Below are positions 3,076-41,810 of a stretch of DNA of 41,810 nt, piece by piece. Under the pieces are notes generated by a model that was not told the origin of the DNA, did not search any database, and worked only from the letters and a program-made list of their open reading frames with translations. The stretch covers positions 1 through 41,810 of the forward strand of contig CALMRD010000069.1 in assembly GCA_937871625.1 (NCBI GenBank). The letters are read 5' to 3'. The stretch's first letter is position 1; the number at the start of each line of letters is the position of its first letter. Position numbers and translations under genes: made by a program. The stretch is from an uncultured Bacteroidales bacterium (GTDB lineage: Bacteria > Bacteroidota > Bacteroidia > Bacteroidales > VadinHA17).

Positions 3076-5232
3076 ATGAGCAACAGACCAAAATATACAG
3101 AGCACGATATTGACAGGGTCACGGTGCCCCGGCGCAATATCAACGAATGGGAGAGGGAGAACGGCATCCCGCCGCTCTGGGATACTCCCGAGCGCATACG
3201 CGTGAAGAGCGTATACACACGTGCTGACCTGAGTGAGATGGAGCACCTGGACTATGCGGCCGGAATACCGCCCTACCTGGGAGGCCCCTACTCTGCCATG
3301 TACGTCATGAAGCCGTGGACCATCAGGCAGTATGCCGGCTTCTCCACCGCTGAGGAGTCGAATGCCTTCTACCGCAGGAACCTGGCGGCAGGACAGAAGG
3401 GTCTGTCGGTGGCTTTTGACCTGGCAACGCACCGCGGCTATGATTCGGATCATGAGCGTGTCGTCGGTGACGTGGGCAAGGCAGGCGTCGCGGTGGATTC
3501 GGTGCTTGACATGAAGATACTCTTCGACCAGATACCCCTGAACAAGATGTCTGTCTCCATGACGATGAACGGTGCCGTGCTTCCCGTGCTGGCGTTTTAC
3601 ATCGTCGCCGGCCTCGAGCAGGGGGCCAGGCTTGAGGAGCTGCAGGGGACGATACAGAACGACATCCTGAAGGAGTTTATGGTGCGCAACACCTACATCT
3701 ATCCCCCGGCCTTCTCGATGCGCATCATCGCTGACATCTTCAGGTACACCTCAGAGAAGATGCCGAAGTTCAACAGCATATCGATTTCAGGCTACCATAT
3801 GCAGGAGGCCGGCGCCACCGCTGACATAGAGCTGGCCTATACCCTCGCCGACGGGCTCGAGTACCTGCGTACCGGCGTCAATGCCGGGATGAGTGTTGAC
3901 GATTTTGCTCCCCGTCTCTCTTTCTTCTGGGCCAGCGGGCTGAATTTCTTCATGGAGATAGCCAAGATGAGGGCGGCACGTATGCTCTGGGCAAAGATCG
4001 TCAGCGGCTTCAACCCGAAAAACCCCAAGTCGCTTGCCCTGCGCACGCACACCCAGACCTCGGGATGGAGTCTCACAGAGCAGGATCCGTTCAACAATGT
4101 GGGACGTACCTGCATCGAGGCCATGGCTGCCGCCCTGGGACACACACAGAGCTTGCACACCAACGCCCTTGATGAGGCGATAGCGCTGCCTACCGATTTC
4201 TCTGCCAGGATAGCCCGCAACACCCAGATCTTCCTCCAGGAGGAGACCAGCATATGCAGGGCTGTAGACCCATGGGCCGGATCATACTACGTGGAGACGC
4301 TCACCAACGAGATAGCACACCGGGCATGGGAGCTGATAGAGGAGGTGGAGAGCCTCGGCGGGATGGCCAAAGCCATAGAGTCAGGCATACCCAAGATGCG
4401 GATTGAGGAGGCTGCTGCCAGGGCACAGGCCAGGATTGACTCCGGGGCACAGACCATCGTCGGTCTTAACAAATACAGGCTGGAGAAGGAGGACCCACTT
4501 GAGATACTGGAGGTTGACAACAGTGCCGTACGTGATTCCCAGATAAAGAGGCTCCAGCAGCTCAAGGCTTCCCGTAACGAAGAGGAGTGCGGCGCAGCTC
4601 TCGAGGCCATCACCAGGGCAGCGGAGACGGGTGAGGGTAACCTCCTCGCACTCGCCGTGGAGGCTGCATCAAAAAGAGCTACCCTGGGTGAGATATCATA
4701 CGCATGTGAAAAAATAGCAGGAAGATACAAAGCAGTGATAAGGACAATATCAGGAGTATATTCGTCGGAGTACAAGTCGGACTCCGACTTCGAAGAGGCA
4801 AAGGCCATGGCGGCCGAGTTTGCCTCCAGGGCCGGCAGACAGCCCAGGATCATGATAGCAAAGATGGGGCAGGACGGCCATGACCGCGGTGCCAAGGTGA
4901 TATCCACAGGCTATGCCGACATCGGCTTCGACGTCGATATAGGGCCTCTGTTCCAGACCCCTGCCGAAGCTGCCCGCCAGGCAGTCGAGAATGATGTGCA
5001 TCTGCTGGGTGTCTCAAGCCTTGCCGCCGGACACAAGACCCTGATACCGCAGGTGATCAACGAGCTTAAGAAGCTGGGGCGCGAAGACATACTGGTCATC
5101 GCCGGGGGCGTGATACCCCCGCAGGATTACCAGTTCCTGTATGATACCGGCGTGGCAGCCATCTTCGGTCCCGGAACGTCAGTATCGAAAACAGCAAAAG
5201 AGATACTATCTTTGCTGTTGCAGACAGTATGA
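3076..5232 (+). CDS. mutB: Methylmalonyl-CoA mutase, large (alpha) catalytic subunit, adenosylcobalamin-dependent
   Basis: Hallmark motifs [46 protein letters not shown] and the B12-binding [11 protein letters not shown] (DxHxxG). 718 aa. Confidence 0.95.
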
Positions 5233-5900
5233 GAACTATCAGTATCATCACCATCATTGCCGTTCTGGCCCTCGTGGCCGGATGCGGCACATCCCGCAAG
5301 CATGCAGCAGGGGCAGCAGAGCCTGCACCCGTTGCGGCACAGGATCAACCTGCACCGGATGAGACAGTTCCGGAGACAGCACCGTTCGGCAATGCCGCCA
5401 TGGCAGGCAAAGAGGAGGCAGGGGGTGAAGCCGCCACTCATGTGTGGGACTTCCGTGACGCCACCACCTGGCTTCTGGGTGACATAAGCCTGCAGCGGCT
5501 GGCAGAACCACCCCATTCATCATGGTTTCTGGAGGGTTACGCGAGCTACATCCCGGATGCTGTATGCCTGGAGCAGCTCAGGAATACCGACATCAGCGAC
5601 ATTACGATCACAGTGGTGCTCGGCACATGGTGCCCCGACAGCCGCAGGGAGGTGCCGCGGTTCATGAAGCTGGCCGACCTGTGGGGCTTCCCGACAGAGA
5701 AGATACGGTTTATCGGCGTCGACATCAACAAGGTGGCTCCACTGGATGAGTATGCCAGCCTGGGCATAGAGAGAGTCCCCACCTTCATCTTTTTTGAAAA
5801 TAATTCGGAGAAAGGACGCATCATTGAGATTCCGGTATCGTCTTTAGAACAGGATAGCAGAGATATCCTCGAAGGAAAATATGAACCGATAAAATTTTGA
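5229..5900 (+). CDS. Thioredoxin-fold lipoprotein with single-Cys WCPDS (CxxS) motif
   Basis: Lipoprotein signal [19 protein letters not shown], an Ala/Pro-rich linker, then a thioredoxin-like core ([17 protein letters not shown] ... VPTFIFF). The ATG overlaps the mutB stop (ATGA at 5229-5232). Confidence 0.7.
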
Positions 5901-34812: not shown

Positions 34813-35105
34813 AATTTACCTGTTCTTTTGTTATTTTTCATGTTCAAACACTGCTTTCATAGCTTCGTTTTCCTTTTCAACATCGATTTTCTTCTCACAG
34901 GAAGTAAATGCGATGAAGATCATTGCGGAGAATGGCAGCATCCAGTTCTCTATAGTGCTGATTTATTATGTTTGTGCAATACAGTTGAATATGAGTAAAT
35001 TTACGCAAGCAATCAATGCAAGTCAAATTTATTTAACCATGCCATGTCTTTTGTTTAAATTTGAATAGTAATAGCCATTTAGCAAAAACTTAATAGAGAG
35101 GTAAA

Positions 35106-36971
35106 ATGAAAAAGAGTGACACAGCAGTTCTCATGAGCTGCCCGGAAAACAGGCCTGGCAAAAGAAGGTTCTGCCTTAAGGTTTCATTGATTGGTTTTAT
35201 GCTGATAATTCTGTCAGGATTCTTCATGACAGCTCTGTCGCAACCGACCGACATCAGCAAGAAGCTCAAAGGATTTGACCAGTATATGGAAAAGACCCTT
35301 AAGGACTGGAATACACCCGGTGCGTGCGTCGGTATTGTTGTAAAAGACAAGCTTGTCTTTGCAAAGGGATATGGTTACCGGGATTATGGAAAAAAACTGC
35401 CGGTGACTCCCAGTACCCTGTACCAGATTGCTTCAAACACAAAACTATTCACAACCGTAGCATCGGGATTGCTTGTTGAGGAAGCCAAACTGGATTGGGA
35501 TACTCCGGTGAAGAACCTTGTGCCTTCAATAAAATTCTATAATAATGAGCTTGACAACACGGTGACGCTGCGTGACATGCTTGCTCACCGTACGGGTATA
35601 TCAAGGCATGACCTTATCTGGTACAAATCAGATTTCTCGAGAAAAGATCTCTTTGACCGTCTTAAATATCTTGAACCCAGCCAGCCTTTACGGACAGGGT
35701 TTCTATACAACAACCTGATGTACGTCGCCGCAGGATACATTATTGAACTGCAAAGCGGAAAAACATGGGAGCAGTTTGTCCAGGAAAAGATCTTTGATCC
35801 GCTGAAAATGGAGAGGACCTATTTTAAAGTCAGCGATATGGTTGCCGATCCTGATCATGGAGTGCCGTACAATGAAAAACGTGACACAACCATTCTTTAT
35901 GAGATCCCGATTTATGAGGATCAGGCGGCTGTCGGACCTGCCGGATCAATCATCTCAAATATAAATGATATGTCGAAATGGCTTATCGCGCTGATGAATG
36001 GCGGCAGGTATGAGGGCAAGCAGATCATTCCTGAGGCAGTTTTGAAAGCCACGCTGGCACCTTCGATCGCGTTGCCCAACACAGGGCTCGAGAACAAGGG
36101 GTACAAGGAGATTCTGAACAGTGTATACGGTATGGGCAGGCAGATGGCCTCCTACAGGGGCCACCTGCTTGCATTTCACGGAGGGGATCTTCCCGGCTTT
36201 CACTCTCAGATATCGATGATGCCCACAGACAGTATCGGCGTGATCGTGTTTATCATCGGAGACCAGGGCCAGCCTTTATATAACACAATAACCTATAATG
36301 TCTATGAACGCCTTTTAGGTATGGATCTGACGCCCTGGAGCGAGAGGAACCTTGCTGATCGTGACAAGGGAAAGGCTGTCGGCAGGGAAGGGAGGAGCAA
36401 AGCCGGTGAAGACAGGGTTGCAGGTGCAGGACCTTCTCACAAGCTGGCTGATTATGCGGGCGAGTTCGAGCACCCGGCTTACGGGATAATGAAAATCAGT
36501 CTAAAGGCGCCGGATTCTCTGCAATTTGATTTTCATAATATAGTGCTTCCTCTTTCGCACTATCATTATGACCGTTTTGATACGCCAAATGATGAGGAGT
36601 ACGGATTATGGTCGCTGAACTTCATGACCAACCCGGCTGGTGAAATCAGCGGGTTCGTTGTATCTGTTGATGAGGGGCAGGTGACCTTTACCAGAAGGGC
36701 TGACCCCGGCCTCAGCGACCCTGTTGTCCTGCAGGCTTATGAGGGCAAGTATCTCATGGGAGGGACGACATTCACCATCGAGGTAACAGGTAGTGAGATT
36801 TTTATAATCTTACCCGGCACACCGCGTATCAAGCTCATACCTGTCTCAAGAGACACCTTCCGGATAAAGGAATTTGCTGACGTCAGTATCATCTTTGTCC
36901 GTGAGGATGGCATTGTCACCGGGATGAAGCAGAAGGATCCGTCTGGTGAATATGCGGCAAAGAAGCAATAG
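35106..36971 (+). CDS. Serine hydrolase of the beta-lactamase/PBP (class C-like) family with C-terminal beta-rich domain
   Basis: SxxK motif in YQIASNTKLFT and a YxN-like YNN (FLYNNLMY). Has an N-terminal TM/signal (LIGFMLIILSGFFMTALSQP) and a C-terminal extension of about 150 aa. Confidence 0.8.
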   Translation: MKKSDTAVLMSCPENRPGKRRFCLKVSLIGFMLIILSGFFMTALSQPTDISKKLKGFDQYMEKTLKDWNTPGACVGIVVKDKLVFAKGYGYRDYGKKLPVTPSTLYQIASNTKLFTTVASGLLVEEAKLDWDTPVKNLVPSIKFYNNELDNTVTLRDMLAHRTGISRHDLIWYKSDFSRKDLFDRLKYLEPSQPLRTGFLYNNLMYVAAGYIIELQSGKTWEQFVQEKIFDPLKMERTYFKVSDMVADPDHGVPYNEKRDTTILYEIPIYEDQAAVGPAGSIISNINDMSKWLIALMNGGRYEGKQIIPEAVLKATLAPSIALPNTGLENKGYKEILNSVYGMGRQMASYRGHLLAFHGGDLPGFHSQISMMPTDSIGVIVFIIGDQGQPLYNTITYNVYERLLGMDLTPWSERNLADRDKGKAVGREGRSKAGEDRVAGAGPSHKLADYAGEFEHPAYGIMKISLKAPDSLQFDFHNIVLPLSHYHYDRFDTPNDEEYGLWSLNFMTNPAGEISGFVVSVDEGQVTFTRRADPGLSDPVVLQAYEGKYLMGGTTFTIEVTGSEIFIILPGTPRIKLIPVSRDTFRIKEFADVSIIFVREDGIVTGMKQKDPSGEYAAKKQ

Positions 36972-36988
36972 TTGATTTCACTCTACAG

Positions 36989-37014
36989 GGCCACGCCTCA
37001 GCGTGGCCTTTTTT
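36989..37014 (+). terminator. Rho-independent terminator
   Basis: Stem GGCCACGC / GCGTGGCC, loop CTCA, followed by TTTTTT. Confidence 0.9.
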
Positions 37015-37134
37015 ATATATAGCACTCCTCTGGTAGCAGCTTCCCCCGGTGAAGAATCTTCTTTTTCCTATCGTTGATATTTGATGCGGCAAAAGAATTT
37101 TAGAAAAAAGCTTGACTTTTTAAAAGTACTATCT

Positions 37135-37142
37135 TAAATTTG
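37135..37142 (+). promoter_or_regulatory. -7 promoter element TAAATTTG ahead of the HTH gene / GG-peptide locus
   Basis: Matches TAnnTTTG, 28 nt upstream of ATG 37170. It lies inside the TTG-initiated extension of track ORF 37140-37415. Confidence 0.45.
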
Positions 37143-37169
37143 AGATGCTGCATTTTTAAAACTATTCAC

Positions 37170-37415
37170 ATGTCGTTGTCCAAGTACATTGCACGATTGC
37201 AACGGATGGATCTACTAATTGCCTTGAAGGCAACCGGTTCCCCGGAAGCATTTGCCAATAAGATGAACCTCAGCCGAAGCACTCTTTTTGAGACGCTTCA
37301 GGAGATGAAAGGAATGGGTGTTGATATCAGGTATTCCAACATCAGGGAGACATATTATTATGGCGATGCCAGGCGAATAATAGTCAGGGTTGAGAAAGCC
37401 GGTGAGAAACAATGA
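37170..37415 (+). CDS. Small helix-turn-helix protein (putative locus regulator)
   Basis: 81 aa from the first ATG (MSLSKYIARLQRMDLLIALKATGSPEAFANKMNLSRSTLFETLQEMKGMG). Winged-HTH-like pattern with recognition helix LSRSTLFETL. Confidence 0.6.
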   Translation: MSLSKYIARLQRMDLLIALKATGSPEAFANKMNLSRSTLFETLQEMKGMGVDIRYSNIRETYYYGDARRIIVRVEKAGEKQ

Positions 37416-37500
37416 CAGCCCGGACACAACAGTGTGTACCATCCCTTGATGGTGAAGTCATTTGAGAGGCTTGAATTCTAAACAATCAAATTAGAAGGAT

Positions 37501-38157
37501 ATGGTAGAACGACTCTTGTCACTTAAAGGCTGGAAGCTATTTGGCGGAATAGTATTGGTAAATCTGCTCATTCTGTTTTTATCCCAGACAACTCTGATTA
37601 ACGAGATAGTATTCTTCAATACTTACAGTGAACAGCTTACATACGACAGAGCTATGGAGGTATTCAGCCAGATGCGCTCTTTCTCATGGGTCAGTTACAT
37701 CATTGCTCCTATACTTCTACTGCTCAAATTCTCAGTGATGAGTGTACTTCTCTATATCGGGATATTCTTCAGTGACCTTCATAAAGAGATTACCCTGGGG
37801 AAGATATTTAAAGTGGTGATTGCTAGTGAACTGGTGTTTATTGTTGCCTCAATTGTTAAACTATTGTGGTTCATCTTTTTTGCGGGCAACTACACTCTGG
37901 AAGATATGAGCTTCTTCTATCCGCTCTCGTTGATTAATCTGTTTAGCCGGTCGGAGGTAGCCGCTTATTGGATATATCCTCTGCAAACAGTGAATTTTTT
38001 CCAGTTGATTTATATCGTTATGCTTGCACTGGGGCTGTCTAAAATCAGTACAATTAGAAAGGAGGCTGCTGACAAAATTGTGCTTTCCACTTATGTCCCG
38101 GCCATGGCGGTCTGGATTGCACTGGTAATGTTTCTTTCAATTGATGTACAGGCATGA
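37501..38157 (+). CDS. Polytopic membrane protein, Cys-free, family not recognised (Yip1-like topology)
   Basis: 218 aa with about 5-6 hydrophobic helices and no cysteine. Its stop overlaps the next start (ATGA 38154-38157). Confidence 0.65.
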   Translation: MVERLLSLKGWKLFGGIVLVNLLILFLSQTTLINEIVFFNTYSEQLTYDRAMEVFSQMRSFSWVSYIIAPILLLLKFSVMSVLLYIGIFFSDLHKEITLGKIFKVVIASELVFIVASIVKLLWFIFFAGNYTLEDMSFFYPLSLINLFSRSEVAAYWIYPLQTVNFFQLIYIVMLALGLSKISTIRKEAADKIVLSTYVPAMAVWIALVMFLSIDVQA

Positions 38158-38681
38158 AAAAACGGATTGGCAAGGTTTTGCTTGTATTGGTGGGAGGATT
38201 TCTGATCTTTCTTATAGCTGGCATAGTGATAAGAAAAGTAAAAGGGGAGCAAGCTGCTGAGAAAATAAGAACTCTTCCCGTACTTGCTATGAAAGATATC
38301 TGGGGAAATTCCTTCACGACTGAAAAGATACCCTCCGGGCCTCTGTTAATCACCTTTTTCCATCCGGAGTGTGACCACTGCAAATATGAAATATCGTCAC
38401 TTATTAGCACTGATTTGATTGACAGCCAGTTAGCAATACTACTTGTTAGCTATGCTAAGGTTGATGATATTCAGTCTTTTATACAAGAAGTTGGGAATAT
38501 TGATGCATTAAACATGCATATCCTGCATGATCCTGATTTCAGGATGAGTGATCTGTACAGAGCCGACATCCTTCCGTCAAACTTCATTTACAATAAGGAG
38601 CTTAAGCTTGTAAAAGTATTCAAGGGGGCAACCAAGCCGGAGACCATCATGAAATACCTGAATGGGAATGATAAAGATTAA
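38154..38681 (+). CDS. Membrane-anchored thioredoxin-fold thiol:disulfide oxidoreductase (TlpA/redoxin-like, CDHC active site)
   Basis: N-terminal TM VLLVLVGGFLIFLIAGIVI, then a redoxin core with LLITFFHPECDHCKYE (CxxC). 175 aa. Confidence 0.8.
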   Translation: MKKRIGKVLLVLVGGFLIFLIAGIVIRKVKGEQAAEKIRTLPVLAMKDIWGNSFTTEKIPSGPLLITFFHPECDHCKYEISSLISTDLIDSQLAILLVSYAKVDDIQSFIQEVGNIDALNMHILHDPDFRMSDLYRADILPSNFIYNKELKLVKVFKGATKPETIMKYLNGNDKD

Positions 38682-40854
38682 GAGGGTTAAAGAAGCATCA
38701 TTGCTTCAGCACGACTCCACCGATTGTGGTGCGGCTTGTCTGGCATCTGTAATCAGGTATTTCGGCGGAGAGTCCGGAATAGAAAAAATTCGCAGGCTTA
38801 GTGGTACAACTCAGTCAGGAACTACGATGCTGGGATTATATCAGGCTGCACGCGAATCTGGTATGGAGGCTACTGGTTATGAGGCTTCCGTGAATGATAT
38901 TAAGGAATTCAATGGTATTCTAATTCTGCATGTGACTCCGGAACCTGGATATGAGCATTATATCGTCTCTTATGGTTTCTATGATGGCAGGTTTGTCGTC
39001 TGGGATCCTGCAAAAGGTTTGGAGTTAAAGACAGCATCGGAAGTTGAAAAGATTTGGGCGAGTCATAAATGTCTTGCAGTCAGTCCGGGCAAAGATTTTG
39101 TCCTGGAGAAAGTATCAAAAAGAAGTAAACGCAGGTGGATAGTTGATACAATTATGCCGGAGTACGAATTACTCCTGGTCAGTGTTGTCGTAGGTATAGT
39201 CATTTCACTGCTCGGTGTTGTAATGGCAGTCTATACGCAAAAGTTACTTGACCGGATTCTCCCTTCAGGTGATGTGAGAATGCTTGTTGTTTCAGTGGCA
39301 TTGGTGTTTCTGCTTCTTGGGGTTAGGGTTCTGCTGACTGCAGTCCGACAATCCATGTTATTGTCTCAGGGAAAGACTTACAACATCCGTGTTGTTGACG
39401 GATTTTACAGTTCATTGCTGGGATTGCCGAAGCCGTTTTTTGATACCAGAAAAACCGGCGACATGGTTGCCCGACTTAACGACACCATGCGAATCCAGCG
39501 TGTCATCTCCGACGTGGTCAGCACCTATGTGATCGATTTTCTGATTGTGATGATTACAATGGTCATGATCTTCATTTATTCTTCTGTTGCAGGCATTATT
39601 TCAGCTTTAGCAATTCCTCTCTTTTTTCTGCTGGTTTACAGTTGGAACAAGCCGGTTATCAAATCGCAGCAGGACCTCATGGCAGGTTATGCCATGAATG
39701 AAAGCAATTTCATAAATACTCTCAGGGGCATTACGGAGATCAAGAGCATGCAATGGCAGCGTTATTATGAGAAAAAAAATAAATCGGTATTCACTATTTT
39801 TCAGGAGAGGGCTTTCTCATTGGGGAAGATCAAAATAAAGCTTGGGATGATTACAAACCTTGCAGGCACTCTATACCTGATGGGGTTATTAATGTACACT
39901 TCGCTTGAGGTAATGGAGATGCGGATGACTCAGGGCGAACTGATGGCTATCATTTCACTTAGCTCTGCCCTGCTGCCGTCAGTGATGAACCTGGCTCTCG
40001 TCTCCATTCCTCTGAGCGAGGCTAAGGTCGCTATCGAAAGAATGTTTGAATTCACGCAGTTACAGCCGGAAGAGCCTGATGAAAAAACAGAAAAGCCAGG
40101 ATTACCTTTTTCCCGGATTACACTTGACAGCATTACCTTTCGGTTCCCCGGTCAGAAGTTACTTCTTTCTGATGTGAACCTTGAGATTGAAAAAGGTACT
40201 GCAACTGCTTTGGTAGGGGAGTCGGGTTCGGGTAAGAGTACTCTGGTAAACATTCTGATGAGATTTTACCAGCCGGAGTCAGGCTCTGTAAAGGTTAATG
40301 ATGAGACGCCTTGTCAGGATGTGCCGCTCGATTGCTGGCGAAGGTCGATAGGTCTGATTCCACAGGAAATTCATCTTTTCAATGGCACAGTATTGGAGAA
40401 TGTTGTACCTGATGCTGATGAGGATAAAATCAGGAAGTTGGGCAGTCTGATCATTGAATACGGGCTTGAGCCTTTCATAAAAAGCCTGCCCCTGGGTTTT
40501 GCTACCTTAACTGGCGAAGATGGTGTCAAATTATCTGGCGGGCAAAAGCAGGTTATTGCATTCATGAGGGCCTTGATCAATGATCCGGAAATTCTTCTTA
40601 TTGATGAAGGCACCTCCGGGATGGACCGGGACACGGAAGCTATTTTTCTCAAGATTCTGATGCGATTGAAAGGATCTATTGGCATATTGTTGGTTACCCA
40701 CCGGATAAATATTATAAGAAAGTTATGTGACAGGGTTTACCTGCTTGAGGGAGGTGCTATTTCAGACTCAGGCACGCATAATGAGCTTTTAATGAATGAT
40801 AACCTCTACAGAAGATATTGGGAGGAATTTGATTTGGCGGGGGCGATCAGATGA
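38662..40854 (+). CDS. Peptidase-C39-domain ABC transporter (PCAT; double-glycine leader processing exporter)
   Basis: C39 catalytic Cys in LQHDSTDCGAACLASV, with a His/Asp region (EHYIVSYG ... VWDP). Six-TM ABC membrane domain. Walker A GESGSGKST, signature LSGGQKQ, Walker B ILLIDE, H-loop LVTHR. Overlaps the previous gene by 20 nt. Confidence 0.92.
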   Translation: MGMIKIKRVKEASLLQHDSTDCGAACLASVIRYFGGESGIEKIRRLSGTTQSGTTMLGLYQAARESGMEATGYEASVNDIKEFNGILILHVTPEPGYEHYIVSYGFYDGRFVVWDPAKGLELKTASEVEKIWASHKCLAVSPGKDFVLEKVSKRSKRRWIVDTIMPEYELLLVSVVVGIVISLLGVVMAVYTQKLLDRILPSGDVRMLVVSVALVFLLLGVRVLLTAVRQSMLLSQGKTYNIRVVDGFYSSLLGLPKPFFDTRKTGDMVARLNDTMRIQRVISDVVSTYVIDFLIVMITMVMIFIYSSVAGIISALAIPLFFLLVYSWNKPVIKSQQDLMAGYAMNESNFINTLRGITEIKSMQWQRYYEKKNKSVFTIFQERAFSLGKIKIKLGMITNLAGTLYLMGLLMYTSLEVMEMRMTQGELMAIISLSSALLPSVMNLALVSIPLSEAKVAIERMFEFTQLQPEEPDEKTEKPGLPFSRITLDSITFRFPGQKLLLSDVNLEIEKGTATALVGESGSGKSTLVNILMRFYQPESGSVKVNDETPCQDVPLDCWRRSIGLIPQEIHLFNGTVLENVVPDADEDKIRKLGSLIIEYGLEPFIKSLPLGFATLTGEDGVKLSGGQKQVIAFMRALINDPEILLIDEGTSGMDRDTEAIFLKILMRLKGSIGILLVTHRINIIRKLCDRVYLLEGGAISDSGTHNELLMNDNLYRRYWEEFDLAGAIR

Positions 40855-41052
40855 TGGGTTTGCCGTCACTCTGTGGAACGGCAAGAGGTAATGAAAAAAA
40901 AAGAGATGAGGTCAAAAAAACTACACCAATCCTGTATTATTGGACTGCCCGGTTTTTATTTTGAAAGTGCCGACCGGTTTTCGAAACCATCGTCGGCAGG
41001 CCGATACCGAAAAGCCTGAAATAGAGTAGGTGTAAGAAAAACATGTCTCGCT

Positions 41053-41268
41053 ATGAAAGAATTAAACTTTGACCAGATGGAGGTTACTAATGGAGGTTCA
41101 GTTATCAAAGTCGTGGGATGTACGATAGGATCGATCCTTCTTGTTTCTGCTTTTGCATCTTTGTTTGCCCTTACGGCAGGAGCCGGAGCAATAGCTATTG
41201 CAGCTGCTGCTACTGGAGCATCACTTAGTCCTGCTGGTTGGGGGCTTGCTTGTTTTACGCAATATTGA
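41053..41268 (+). CDS. Double-glycine-leader precursor peptide (bacteriocin-like); predicted cleavage after Gly15 gives a 56-aa hydrophobic core
   Basis: MKELNFDQMEVTNGG|SVIKVVGCTIGSILLVSAFASLFALTAGAGAIAIAAAATGASLSPAGWGLACFTQY. The leader fits the CFB-type LNxxQMxxIxGG pattern. Lies directly downstream of the PCAT gene on the same strand. Confidence 0.75.
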   Translation: MKELNFDQMEVTNGGSVIKVVGCTIGSILLVSAFASLFALTAGAGAIAIAAAATGASLSPAGWGLACFTQY

Positions 41269-41313
41269 TTAAATATTTATGTTTTAAGTTTGAAAGATTA
41301 ATAAGAGACAAAA

Positions 41314-41538
41314 ATGAATAAATTGTTAAGAAGGGACGTACTAAGTATAGCCTTTATTCTGAGCCTGATTGTTTTTGGAGTATCGATTGTGGTATCTGCA
41401 GCCTATGATCTATCTCCAAAAGGCAGGCTGGTATTCTTAATAATCACGATCGCCTCTTTCTTTTCAAGCCTTTCCTCAATTCTGCAGTTAAGAGCAAGAA
41501 GACAGAGATTCGACAGTGAAGAAAAAGCTAGACCATAA
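41314..41538 (+). CDS. 74-aa two-TM mini-protein (candidate immunity protein)
   Basis: Two hydrophobic helices (LSIAFILSLIVFGVSIVVSAA, LVFLIITIASFFSSLSSIL) and a basic C-terminal tail. Lies 45 nt downstream of the precursor gene. Confidence 0.55.
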   Translation: MNKLLRRDVLSIAFILSLIVFGVSIVVSAAYDLSPKGRLVFLIITIASFFSSLSSILQLRARRQRFDSEEKARP

Positions 41539-41595
41539 GTTCCATCCTTCTACAGCAGTTTACTCTTTGCTGAAACTCGGTGGGTCGTTAAAACT

Positions 41596-41627
41596 ACGGG
41601 AGGGTTTAATAATATTTACCCTCCTGT
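41596..41627 (+). terminator. Hairpin, possible terminator closing the GG-peptide locus
   Basis: Stem ACGGGAGGGT / ACCCTCCTGT (10 bp including one G-U), 12-nt AT loop, followed by a weak T-tract (CTTATT). Confidence 0.45.
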
Positions 41628-41810
41628 CTTATTAGGACTATCTTCATATTTTAGCTTTCTAACACTGACTGGGATTAATGAATTTGCTTCTTAAGCCCAA
41701 CTTGGGACTGTCCAAATCAGTGTGTCCAATATGTCCTTTTAGTTGCCATTTTCAAGTGTCGATTAGGGGGTGCGAGCACAATTGTCATCCGTCTAAATAA
41801 GAGAAATATA

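Follow-up and report, generated by a model that had tools for sequence, protein, structure and literature searches.

A bacteroidetocin-type export locus with a candidate two-cysteine bacteriocin and a putative immunity gene in an uncultured Bacteroidales bacterium

Bacteroidetocins, proposed as 'class IIf' bacteriocins (PMC6671954; PMC8546649), are encoded in loci of four genes, for a transmembrane (TM) protein, the peptide, an oxidoreductase and an exporter, which suffice in E. coli; deletion of the TM protein, oxidoreductase or peptide gene attenuates toxin activity (PMC6671954). The dedicated oxidoreductase is explained by the lack of a general disulfide machinery in Bacteroides, and bacteroidetocins A and B come without an immunity protein and kill their own producers (PMC6671954). 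Bacteroidetocins A, B and D (Bd-A, Bd-B and Bd-D) are diffusible and kill Bacteroidales via BamA (PMC8546649). Here we describe a locus of six same-strand open reading frames (ORFs) between 37140 and 41538 of a 41,810-nt stretch of DNA (the window; contig CALMRD010000069.1) from an uncultured Bacteroidales bacterium, encoding in order a small helix-turn-helix (HTH) protein, a membrane protein, an oxidoreductase, an exporter, a precursor with a double-glycine (GG) leader and a two-helix mini-protein. The locus probably makes, exports and protects against a class II GG-leader bacteriocin, unmodified but for one disulfide, by means of an export machinery typical of Bacteroidota. An initial annotation of this DNA had read it as a coherent set of precursor, processing exporter, disulfide enzyme and probable immunity, a logic that fits the evidence presented below.

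Export machinery shared with bacteroidetocin loci

Three adjacent genes encode the machinery of the locus:

37501-38157, + strand: Cys-free five-helix membrane protein, 218 aa, with five hydrophobic segments
38154-38681, + strand: membrane-anchored CxxC thiol-disulfide oxidoreductase with a thioredoxin fold, 175 aa (motif C-D-H-C; PF00578, E 1.5e-8, above cut-off)
38662-40854, + strand: C39-peptidase ATP-binding cassette (ABC) exporter, 730 aa (Peptidase_C39, ABC_membrane and ABC_tran, all above Pfam cut-offs)

The Bd-B locus was recovered by running a cloning primer (PMC6671954, Supplementary Table 2) as an exact DNA pattern against metagenome contigs, which returned seven contigs from the human gut. 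One of the loci compared here (designated by L numbers), L101, encodes intact bacteroidetocin B, with the leader MKKVSNKVLSRAFGG followed by a 42-aa core containing 4 Cys and many charged residues, and its neighbours are a 221-aa membrane protein, a 173-aa CxxC protein and a 707-aa exporter. In L099 (7780-7960) the bacteroidetocin B gene is frameshifted, in contrast to the intact copy in L101. The ATG in the published pET16b forward primer opens an ORF of only 13 codons, about 100 nt 5' of the ORF for the 221-aa membrane protein.

All three machinery proteins of the window match their Bd-B counterparts, which argues that the likeness to the bacteroidetocin machinery is real homology. The profile of the membrane-protein family aligns with the Bd-B TM protein over 199 of about 220 columns (hhalign probability 97.3%, E 2e-11), although the two single sequences give no significant match (BLASTP E 0.057); the oxidoreductases match with a BLASTP E of 4e-6 and the exporters over their full length with 29% identity (E 2e-107). 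Identity between the machinery proteins here and those of bacteroidetocin loci lies between 18 and 29%. The resemblance to bacteroidetocin clusters, which the initial annotation had pointed out, is thus borne out, while its view that the two accessory membrane proteins belong to unrecognised families has to be abandoned: bacteroidetocin loci are characterised by just these accessory proteins (PMC6671954), and the membrane-protein family alone counts 862 representative clusters at E<=1e-3.

No family in Pfam or NCBIfam covers the membrane protein. AlphaFold2 predicts its structure with confidence (predicted local distance difference test, pLDDT, 90; predicted template modelling score, pTM, 0.83), and the predicted structure has no fold match in the PDB by Foldseek (best E 5.4). 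Eight of 35 members of its family match nearly the whole Yip1 model (PF04893) at up to 24.1 bits, below the cut-off of 28.6, and this model matches neither the window protein nor the Bd-B TM protein; the membrane protein is possibly a remote Yip1 relative. The motifs FYPLS and YPLQxxNxF are strongly conserved within the family, and a plasmid collection contained a single weak relative, from Flammeovirga, at 24% identity.

The oxidoreductase gives a ResA-like match (NCBIfam, E 4.5e-7) and has one TM segment at residues 8-26; the basic N-terminus followed by this single anchor suggests that the catalytic domain is periplasmic. C39-peptidase ABC exporters cut the leader after Gly-Gly during export. 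The best PDB relative of the exporter is PCAT1 from Clostridium thermocellum (4RY2), which aligns over the full length (E 1e-102) and shares both the architecture and identical residues at the Cys (DCGAAC), His (H-[YF]-[IV]-V) and Asp (DP-KG) motifs, residues that we take to be the catalytic ones of the PCAT1 peptidase. PCAT1 is nevertheless only a distant relative, and it has neither an accessory oxidoreductase nor an accessory membrane protein. The best NCBIfam match, TIGR01193 bacteriocin_ABC, is likewise full length (E 2e-110) but reaches 370.3 bits, below the cut-off of 523.85. Despite this score the domain architecture and the aligned catalytic motifs point to an ABC transporter of the peptide cleavage and export type, and the domain calls of the initial annotation are correct, with Peptidase_C39, ABC_membrane, ABC_tran and PF00578 all above the Pfam cut-offs.

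Taken as a whole, the locus has what characterizes a bacteroidetocin-type locus, namely a C39 exporter, a thiol oxidoreductase, a five-TM homologue and a peptide with a GG leader of 15-16 aa (15 here) and at least two Cys; hosts in both cases are Bacteroidota, and in both the GC content is below that of the surrounding genome (PMC6671954 for the bacteroidetocins). The two differ in gene order, which is membrane protein, peptide, oxidoreductase and exporter in bacteroidetocin loci and membrane protein, oxidoreductase, exporter and peptide here, in the HTH and putative immunity genes, which are extra here, and in their site, which here is fixed in the chromosome whereas Bd-B lies on an integrative and conjugative element and Bd-A on a 25-kb element. 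They also differ in cargo. The same three-protein machinery, the same phylum and the 15-aa GG leader (PMC6671954; PMC8546649) would be compatible with a bacteroidetocin proper, that is, a diffusible peptide that kills other Bacteroidales by binding BamA at the surface as Bd-A, Bd-B and Bd-D do. We consider this highly improbable, as the sequences are unrelated (hhalign probability 1% for the precursor family against Bd-B, the bacteroidetocin covered by this comparison), as the 42-aa, four-Cys, charge-rich Bd-B contrasts with a hydrophobic, neutral 56-aa peptide with two Cys, one charged residue and a grand average of hydropathy (GRAVY) of 1.41, and as a dedicated immunity candidate is present here and none in bacteroidetocin loci. 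The bacteroidetocins Bd-A to Bd-D, taken strictly, are mature peptides of 42-48 aa, and their closest relatives have four Cys at similar positions.

The precursor peptide and the usual cargo of the machinery

The full precursor of 71 aa (41053-41268) divides into two parts:

41053-41097, + strand: leader-coding part, MKELNFDQMEVTNGG, 15 aa ending in GG; similarity to the closest relatives stops here
41098-41268, + strand: core-coding part, 56 aa with Cys8 and Cys52, stop codon included

The core has a net charge of +1 and 38% Ala+Gly, and its predicted oxidised mass is 5325.82 Da (monoisotopic). Homologues of the precursor (65-97% identity) form 29 clusters, in 24 of which the protein likewise has exactly 71 aa; apart from one evident mis-annotation, none has a functional name. 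Both Cys and the second Gly of the cleavage site are the same in all 30 sequences, and the first Gly rarely differs. In the leader, residue 9 (-7) is almost always Met, and position 4 (-12) is mostly taken by Leu, Ile or Met. The ratio of non-synonymous to synonymous change (dN/dS) between the window and three relatives is 0.04-0.10 (pN 0.07-0.19), with pS about 0.7 and hence near saturation. The precursor is a real, conserved gene under purifying selection, which disposes of the concern, voiced in the initial annotation, that the ORF might not be conserved.

Relatives of the membrane protein were collected with an alignment built from sequences sharing the FYPLSL/YPLQ motifs. One genome per species was scanned; this gave 196 confirmed relatives, and the locus counts that follow come from the best 80. 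These loci span Bacteroidales, Flavobacterium, Pedobacter, Aquimarina, Spirosoma, Runella, Pontibacter, Kordia and others, and in about 66 of them the genes for membrane protein, oxidoreductase and exporter are adjacent in that order, the exceptions mostly having no detectable oxidoreductase or lying on cut contigs. The same adjacency is seen on Emticicia and Cytophagaceae contigs. A scan for GG-leader ORFs yielded 102 hydrophobic peptides with at least two Cys in 63 of the 80 loci, and 91 of the 102 have exactly two. They compare with the window peptide as follows:

Core length: median of the 102 peptides, 48 aa; window peptide, 56 aa
Position of the first Cys: median, 6; window peptide, 8
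Residues after the last Cys: median, 4; window peptide, 4
GRAVY: median, 1.02; window peptide, 1.41
Ala+Gly: median, 34%; window peptide, 38%
Net charge: median, about 0; window peptide, +1

As its values lie near these medians, the window peptide is a typical cargo of the machinery and Bd-B is not. The nearly uncharged, Ala/Gly-rich core, which the initial annotation had singled out as unusual, is therefore the ordinary case.

Shared properties do not here extend to demonstrable common descent. A hidden Markov model (HMM) of the core alone scores about 113 bits against the peptides of L001, L004 and L029 and 48 bits against that of L022, with other cargos at the level of shuffled sequences. 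A link by descent between the window core and the other cargo cores was sought and rejected: leaderless sequences reached 13.7 bits at most, a value matched by the top scorer among 5300 shuffles. The window precursor has no match to PF10439 (Bacteriocin_IIc) or TIGR03949 even at E<=10, and the core matches no Pfam or NCBIfam model. Nor does the core fit class IIa (pediocin-like), as the YGNGVxC motif is missing and the net charge is +1. Some siblings come nearer to described families, the cargos in L085 and L089 reaching 26.3 and 26.9 bits against the PF10439 cut-off of 27.1, while the L022 homologue, 56% identical to the window precursor, gives a weak TIGR03949 match (E 0.044, 13.6 bits against 21.5). 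The core represents a distinct sequence family of a shared design. The proposal of a new peptide family survives only at the level of sequence, where neither a Pfam or NCBIfam match nor any similarity to Bd-B is found; the machinery is known and the type of cargo usual.

A different kind of peptide was seen in Aquimarina, where L070 (2072-5606) and L082 (1912-5514) encode six peptides that are rich in Cys (3-5 Cys) and not hydrophobic, have long Lys-rich leaders (e.g. MKSKKKLSLKKMNVAQLDSIKGG) and adjoin the same membrane-protein and exporter genes. One representative gives sub-threshold matches to PF14406 (Bacteroid_pep) and TIGR04149. The oxidoreductase has no tblastn match in L070 and a weak one (25%) in L082.

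Beyond the Bacteroidota, the Gly/Ala-rich class II bacteriocins of Gram-positive bacteria (PF10439; TIGR03949 lactobin A/cerein 7B) share with this system a GG leader of about 15 aa, a C39 ABC exporter, a hydrophobic Gly/Ala-rich core and a small membrane immunity gene beside the peptide gene (a candidate in the present case). Cerein 7B carries one Cys near its N-terminus and one at its C-terminus. The host here is diderm, however, and an oxidoreductase and a Yip1-like protein take the place of the Gram-positive accessory protein. Microcins are exported through a membrane-fusion protein plus TolC and receive their disulfides from the general DsbA/B system, none of which is encoded in this locus. 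The class II microcins of Enterobacteriaceae (microcin V; PMC12219008) are otherwise comparable, being Gram-negative, exporter-dependent and Gly/Ala-rich with a GG leader, a single disulfide (as would apply here) and an adjacent small immunity gene (putative here). The microcin pipeline of PMC12219008 missed bacteroidetocins, whose leaders differ from the enterobacterial ones.

A swappable pair of peptide core and mini-protein

The last gene of the locus follows the precursor:

41314-41538, + strand: two-helix protein, 74 aa, with two hydrophobic segments and a basic (Lys/Arg-rich) C-terminal tail, putative immunity protein

By tblastn, precursor and mini-protein are found nowhere but in the window, L001-L007, L022 and L029, and always as a pair, the mini-protein match (45-68% identical) lying 47-63 nt 3' of every precursor homologue. 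Apart from one weak match (25%) in L023, the mini-protein is missing from nearly all loci with other cargos, whereas the regulator, membrane protein, oxidoreductase and exporter are found throughout the Bacteroidales clade. The closest relatives of the locus, L008 and L015, have a membrane protein 94% identical to that of the window, and their DNA is 88-89% identical (blastn) from 37112/37134 to 41065-41082, where similarity ends a few codons into the leader; at the place of the window core they encode other two-Cys GG peptides. About seven cargo types, grouped by eye and including some two-peptide pairs, occupy the same site within the clade. The initial annotation had suggested asking whether all six genes come and go as one cassette; instead the locus consists of a conserved core of four genes at a fixed site (regulator, membrane protein, oxidoreductase and exporter) and a swappable module of two, the precursor core and the mini-protein.

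At the position of the window cassette, L008 (13551-15700) carries another two-Cys GG peptide followed by two polytopic membrane proteins and an ABC ATPase, and the same arrangement lies 5' of the membrane-protein gene in L013 (5479-7733). These polytopic proteins and the ATPase look like an ABC-type immunity transporter.

Decayed copies were found as well. In L033 (9650-10133) a frameshifted precursor lies beside an intact mini-protein gene, possibly an orphan immunity gene, and L028 (10400-10480) retains only a C-terminal remnant of the precursor (...GWGLTCFMDY). As cassette exchange, orphaned partners and decayed toxin genes typify toxin-immunity pairs, they form our main argument that the peptide is antibacterial, which we regard as likely, and that the mini-protein is protective. 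Over all loci a small hydrophobic ORF lies within 260 nt 3' of 69 of the 102 cargo genes, against 11.7% at random positions; 23 of these ORFs are another GG cargo and about 50 encode one or two helices, often with a basic tail, a number that includes a few GG peptides missed by the filter.

Two other interpretations bear on the same pair. In the chief one the exported peptide would be non-toxic, a signal (pheromone) or a structural or membrane peptide of, for example, the envelope or vesicles, with the mini-protein as its partner or receptor. GG leaders and C39 exporters also serve pheromone export (ComC/ComAB), ComA is among the PDB relatives of the exporter, the peptide with its hydrophobic segment (GRAVY 1.41) resembles a fragment of a membrane protein, and no outer-membrane export route is encoded in the locus. 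We nevertheless judge this unlikely. The conserved unit contains neither a histidine kinase nor a response regulator; in relatives, LytTR regulators come no closer than about 9 kb, past unrelated genes and on the opposite strand. Known pheromones are far shorter than this peptide, the Bacteriocin_IIc model is nearly reached by sibling cargos, and the swapping of core and small membrane gene between near-identical chassis, with a decayed precursor beside a retained partner, is the pattern of toxin and immunity. Alternatively, the precursor and mini-protein, which are adjacent and strictly co-occur, could together form a two-component membrane-active system with immunity encoded elsewhere or not at all, given that many sibling loci have two GG peptides side by side like the two-peptide class IIb bacteriocins and that bacteroidetocin producers do without immunity (PMC6671954). 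This is very unlikely, as the mini-protein has no GG leader and hence no route through the exporter, as its two hydrophobic segments and Lys/Arg-rich tail resemble small class II immunity proteins, and as it is kept in L033, where the precursor is frameshifted.

For the class II bacteriocin that we favour, the following mechanism can be envisaged. A promoter at about 37135 would drive the gene of the HTH regulator together with the three translationally coupled genes for membrane protein, oxidoreductase and exporter. The exporter, through its C39 domain, would recognise the 15-aa leader of the 71-aa precursor, cut after Gly-Gly and pump the core across the inner membrane, where the membrane-anchored oxidoreductase would join Cys8 to Cys52, a staple between the two ends that would close the 56-aa core into a helical hairpin. 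The five-helix Yip1-like protein would be needed for release of active peptide, as genetics showed for its bacteroidetocin homologue, and the two-helix mini-protein, perhaps from its own promoter, would guard the membrane of the producer. Recombination in the conserved leader-coding sequence and in the spacer 5' of it may swap the peptide core and immunity gene, while the genes for regulator, membrane protein, oxidoreductase and exporter keep their fixed chromosomal place downstream of mutL and a flavodoxin gene as a conserved chassis.

Several points weigh against this reading. The core has no significant similarity to any characterised bacteriocin compared (Pfam, NCBIfam and Bd-B). The AlphaFold2 model of the precursor is of low confidence (pLDDT 57.6), which leaves the stapled-hairpin geometry without structural support. 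Because bacteroidetocins A and B lack an immunity protein and kill their own producers, the putative immunity role of the mini-protein is argued solely from the analogy with Gram-positive class II systems and from co-occurrence. The locus encodes neither an outer-membrane component nor a membrane-fusion protein for the exit of so hydrophobic a 56-aa peptide from a diderm cell; the window ends at 41810, and genes further downstream in this genome lie outside it.

A bolder proposal, which we put forward tentatively and consider doubtful, is that the hydrophobic peptides with one Cys near each end, present in 63 of the 80 loci, form a phylum-wide class of disulfide-stapled helical-hairpin bacteriocins with a mode of action unlike that of the BamA binders. 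The Yip1-like protein and the oxidoreductase would then be a new device that takes peptides from the exporter, oxidises them and releases them from the diderm cell with neither TolC nor a membrane-fusion protein.

Boundaries, chromosomal setting and significance of the locus

The remaining features of the locus are listed below:

36987-37010, + strand: intrinsic terminator of the upstream beta-lactamase-family gene, with a 10-bp stem (7 GC pairs) and a T-run; left boundary of the locus
37135-37142, + strand: promoter-like box TAAATTTG, which fits the Bacteroidota -7 consensus TAnnTTTG, 28 nt 5' of the regulator ATG
37170-37415, + strand: small HTH protein, putative regulator, 81 aa from ATG 37170 (mechanical ORF from TTG 37140: 37140-37415)
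40855-41052, + strand: intergenic spacer, 198 nt, within the unbroken block of 88-89% identity between the window and L008 or L015
41285-41292, + strand: second -7-like box TAAGTTTG, 22 nt 5' of the mini-protein ATG
41596-41627, + strand: hairpin 3' of the last gene, with a 10-bp stem, a 12-nt loop and no T-tract

GC content falls from about 55% in the surroundings to 41-45% in the locus, in agreement with its initial description as AT-rich. The membrane-protein stop and oxidoreductase start share an ATGA overlap at 38154-38157, and the oxidoreductase and exporter genes overlap by 20 nt at 38662-38681, both read in the sequence. The terminator (-18.3 kcal/mol, z -5.1) and the hairpin (-16.5 kcal/mol, z -3.3, with none of 200 shuffles folding as well) are far more stable than shuffled sequences. 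The six genes, the two overlaps and both structures of the initial annotation are all found where it had placed them. With its 12-nt loop and missing T-tract the hairpin is no canonical terminator, although it is a possible transcript end.

The window holds 29 matches to the consensus TAnnTTTG, where shuffled sequences would lead one to expect 11.7. Many of these matches stand just 5' of ORF starts, as judged by eye, and two fall within the locus, at 37135-37142 and 41285-41292, where they are candidate promoters. The spacer at 40855-41052 contains no match to the consensus, and an RNA element or attenuator considered there was rejected, the weak hairpin at 40968-40998 folding no more stably than shuffles do (z -1.2).

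ATG 37170 is a more probable start for the regulator than TTG 37140, since the latter falls within the TAAATTTG box. The regulator gives weak matches to HTH_11 and BirA-repressor-domain models (Pfam and NCBIfam, E about 0.006-0.009), and homologues 47-99% identical lie directly 5' of the membrane-protein gene across the Bacteroidales clade (tblastn). A similar HTH protein was noticed by eye in L012 (Cytophagaceae bacterium BCCC1), where the ORF at 4886-5242 continues into ...LSDSQMAEISGG and then a short Cys-containing tail; it may be a regulator gene fused to, or mis-called with, a GG-leader peptide.

The window is ordinary chromosome, encoding methylmalonyl-CoA mutase, DNA polymerase III alpha, H+-pyrophosphatase and MutL. 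Upstream of the locus lie the genes for H+-pyrophosphatase, a PALP enzyme, an exo/endonuclease-phosphatase family protein, two rhomboids, MutL and flavodoxin, and as this order is the same in locus-carrying relatives (metagenome contigs and metagenome-assembled genomes, MAGs) the site is fixed in the chromosome of an environmental Bacteroidales clade. Those records that come closest are 'Bacteroidales bacterium UBA4772', together with MAGs that carry the label uncultured Rikenella or Rikenellaceae. A segment of about 2.3 kb at 34814-37111, which holds a 621-aa beta-lactamase-family gene (35106-36971; PF00144 plus DUF3471), is missing from the otherwise collinear L008 and L015 and so represents an insertion or deletion at the left edge of the locus. 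In L021 (DUNL01000079.1), a MAG labelled 'Clostridiaceae bacterium', a Bacteroidales locus was seen with proteins 52-81% identical to those of the window (77% for the membrane protein); it is likely mis-binned.

On the right flank in the clade (L001 10921-15409, with equivalents in L004, L008, L023 and L026) lie two paralogous 136-aa membrane proteins, a TonB-dependent receptor (CarboxypepD_reg plus Plug) and a DUF4249 protein. This flank, which lies beyond the end of the window, is conserved in the clade and bounds the variable cargo region, and its genes were set aside as possible components of the system; the distant L013 gave only a receptor fragment at 40% identity. An anti-phage defence system was likewise discounted, with no PADLOC matches.

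What is new in this locus is an unannotated hydrophobic peptide with its probable immunity gene, while the bacteroidetocin-type export chassis that carries both is known, and taken singly it is a routine case, one more putative bacteriocin of an uncultured, Rikenellaceae-like environmental Bacteroidales bacterium. The comparison with its relatives shows the bacteroidetocin machinery to be spread across the Bacteroidota phylum, with a hydrophobic two-Cys peptide as its usual cargo, unlike the charge-rich four-Cys Bd-B; Bd-A and Bd-D are the other characterised water-soluble bacteroidetocins (PMC6671954). Within one clade a single chassis hosts about seven interchangeable cassettes of peptide and putative immunity gene, with the similarity break inside the leader-coding sequence, a layout that resembles a natural plug-in design for peptide expression. 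These results could be useful for the mining of anti-Bacteroidota peptides, for which they suggest a simple search rule: to locate the membrane-protein gene and then a nearby two-Cys GG-leader ORF.

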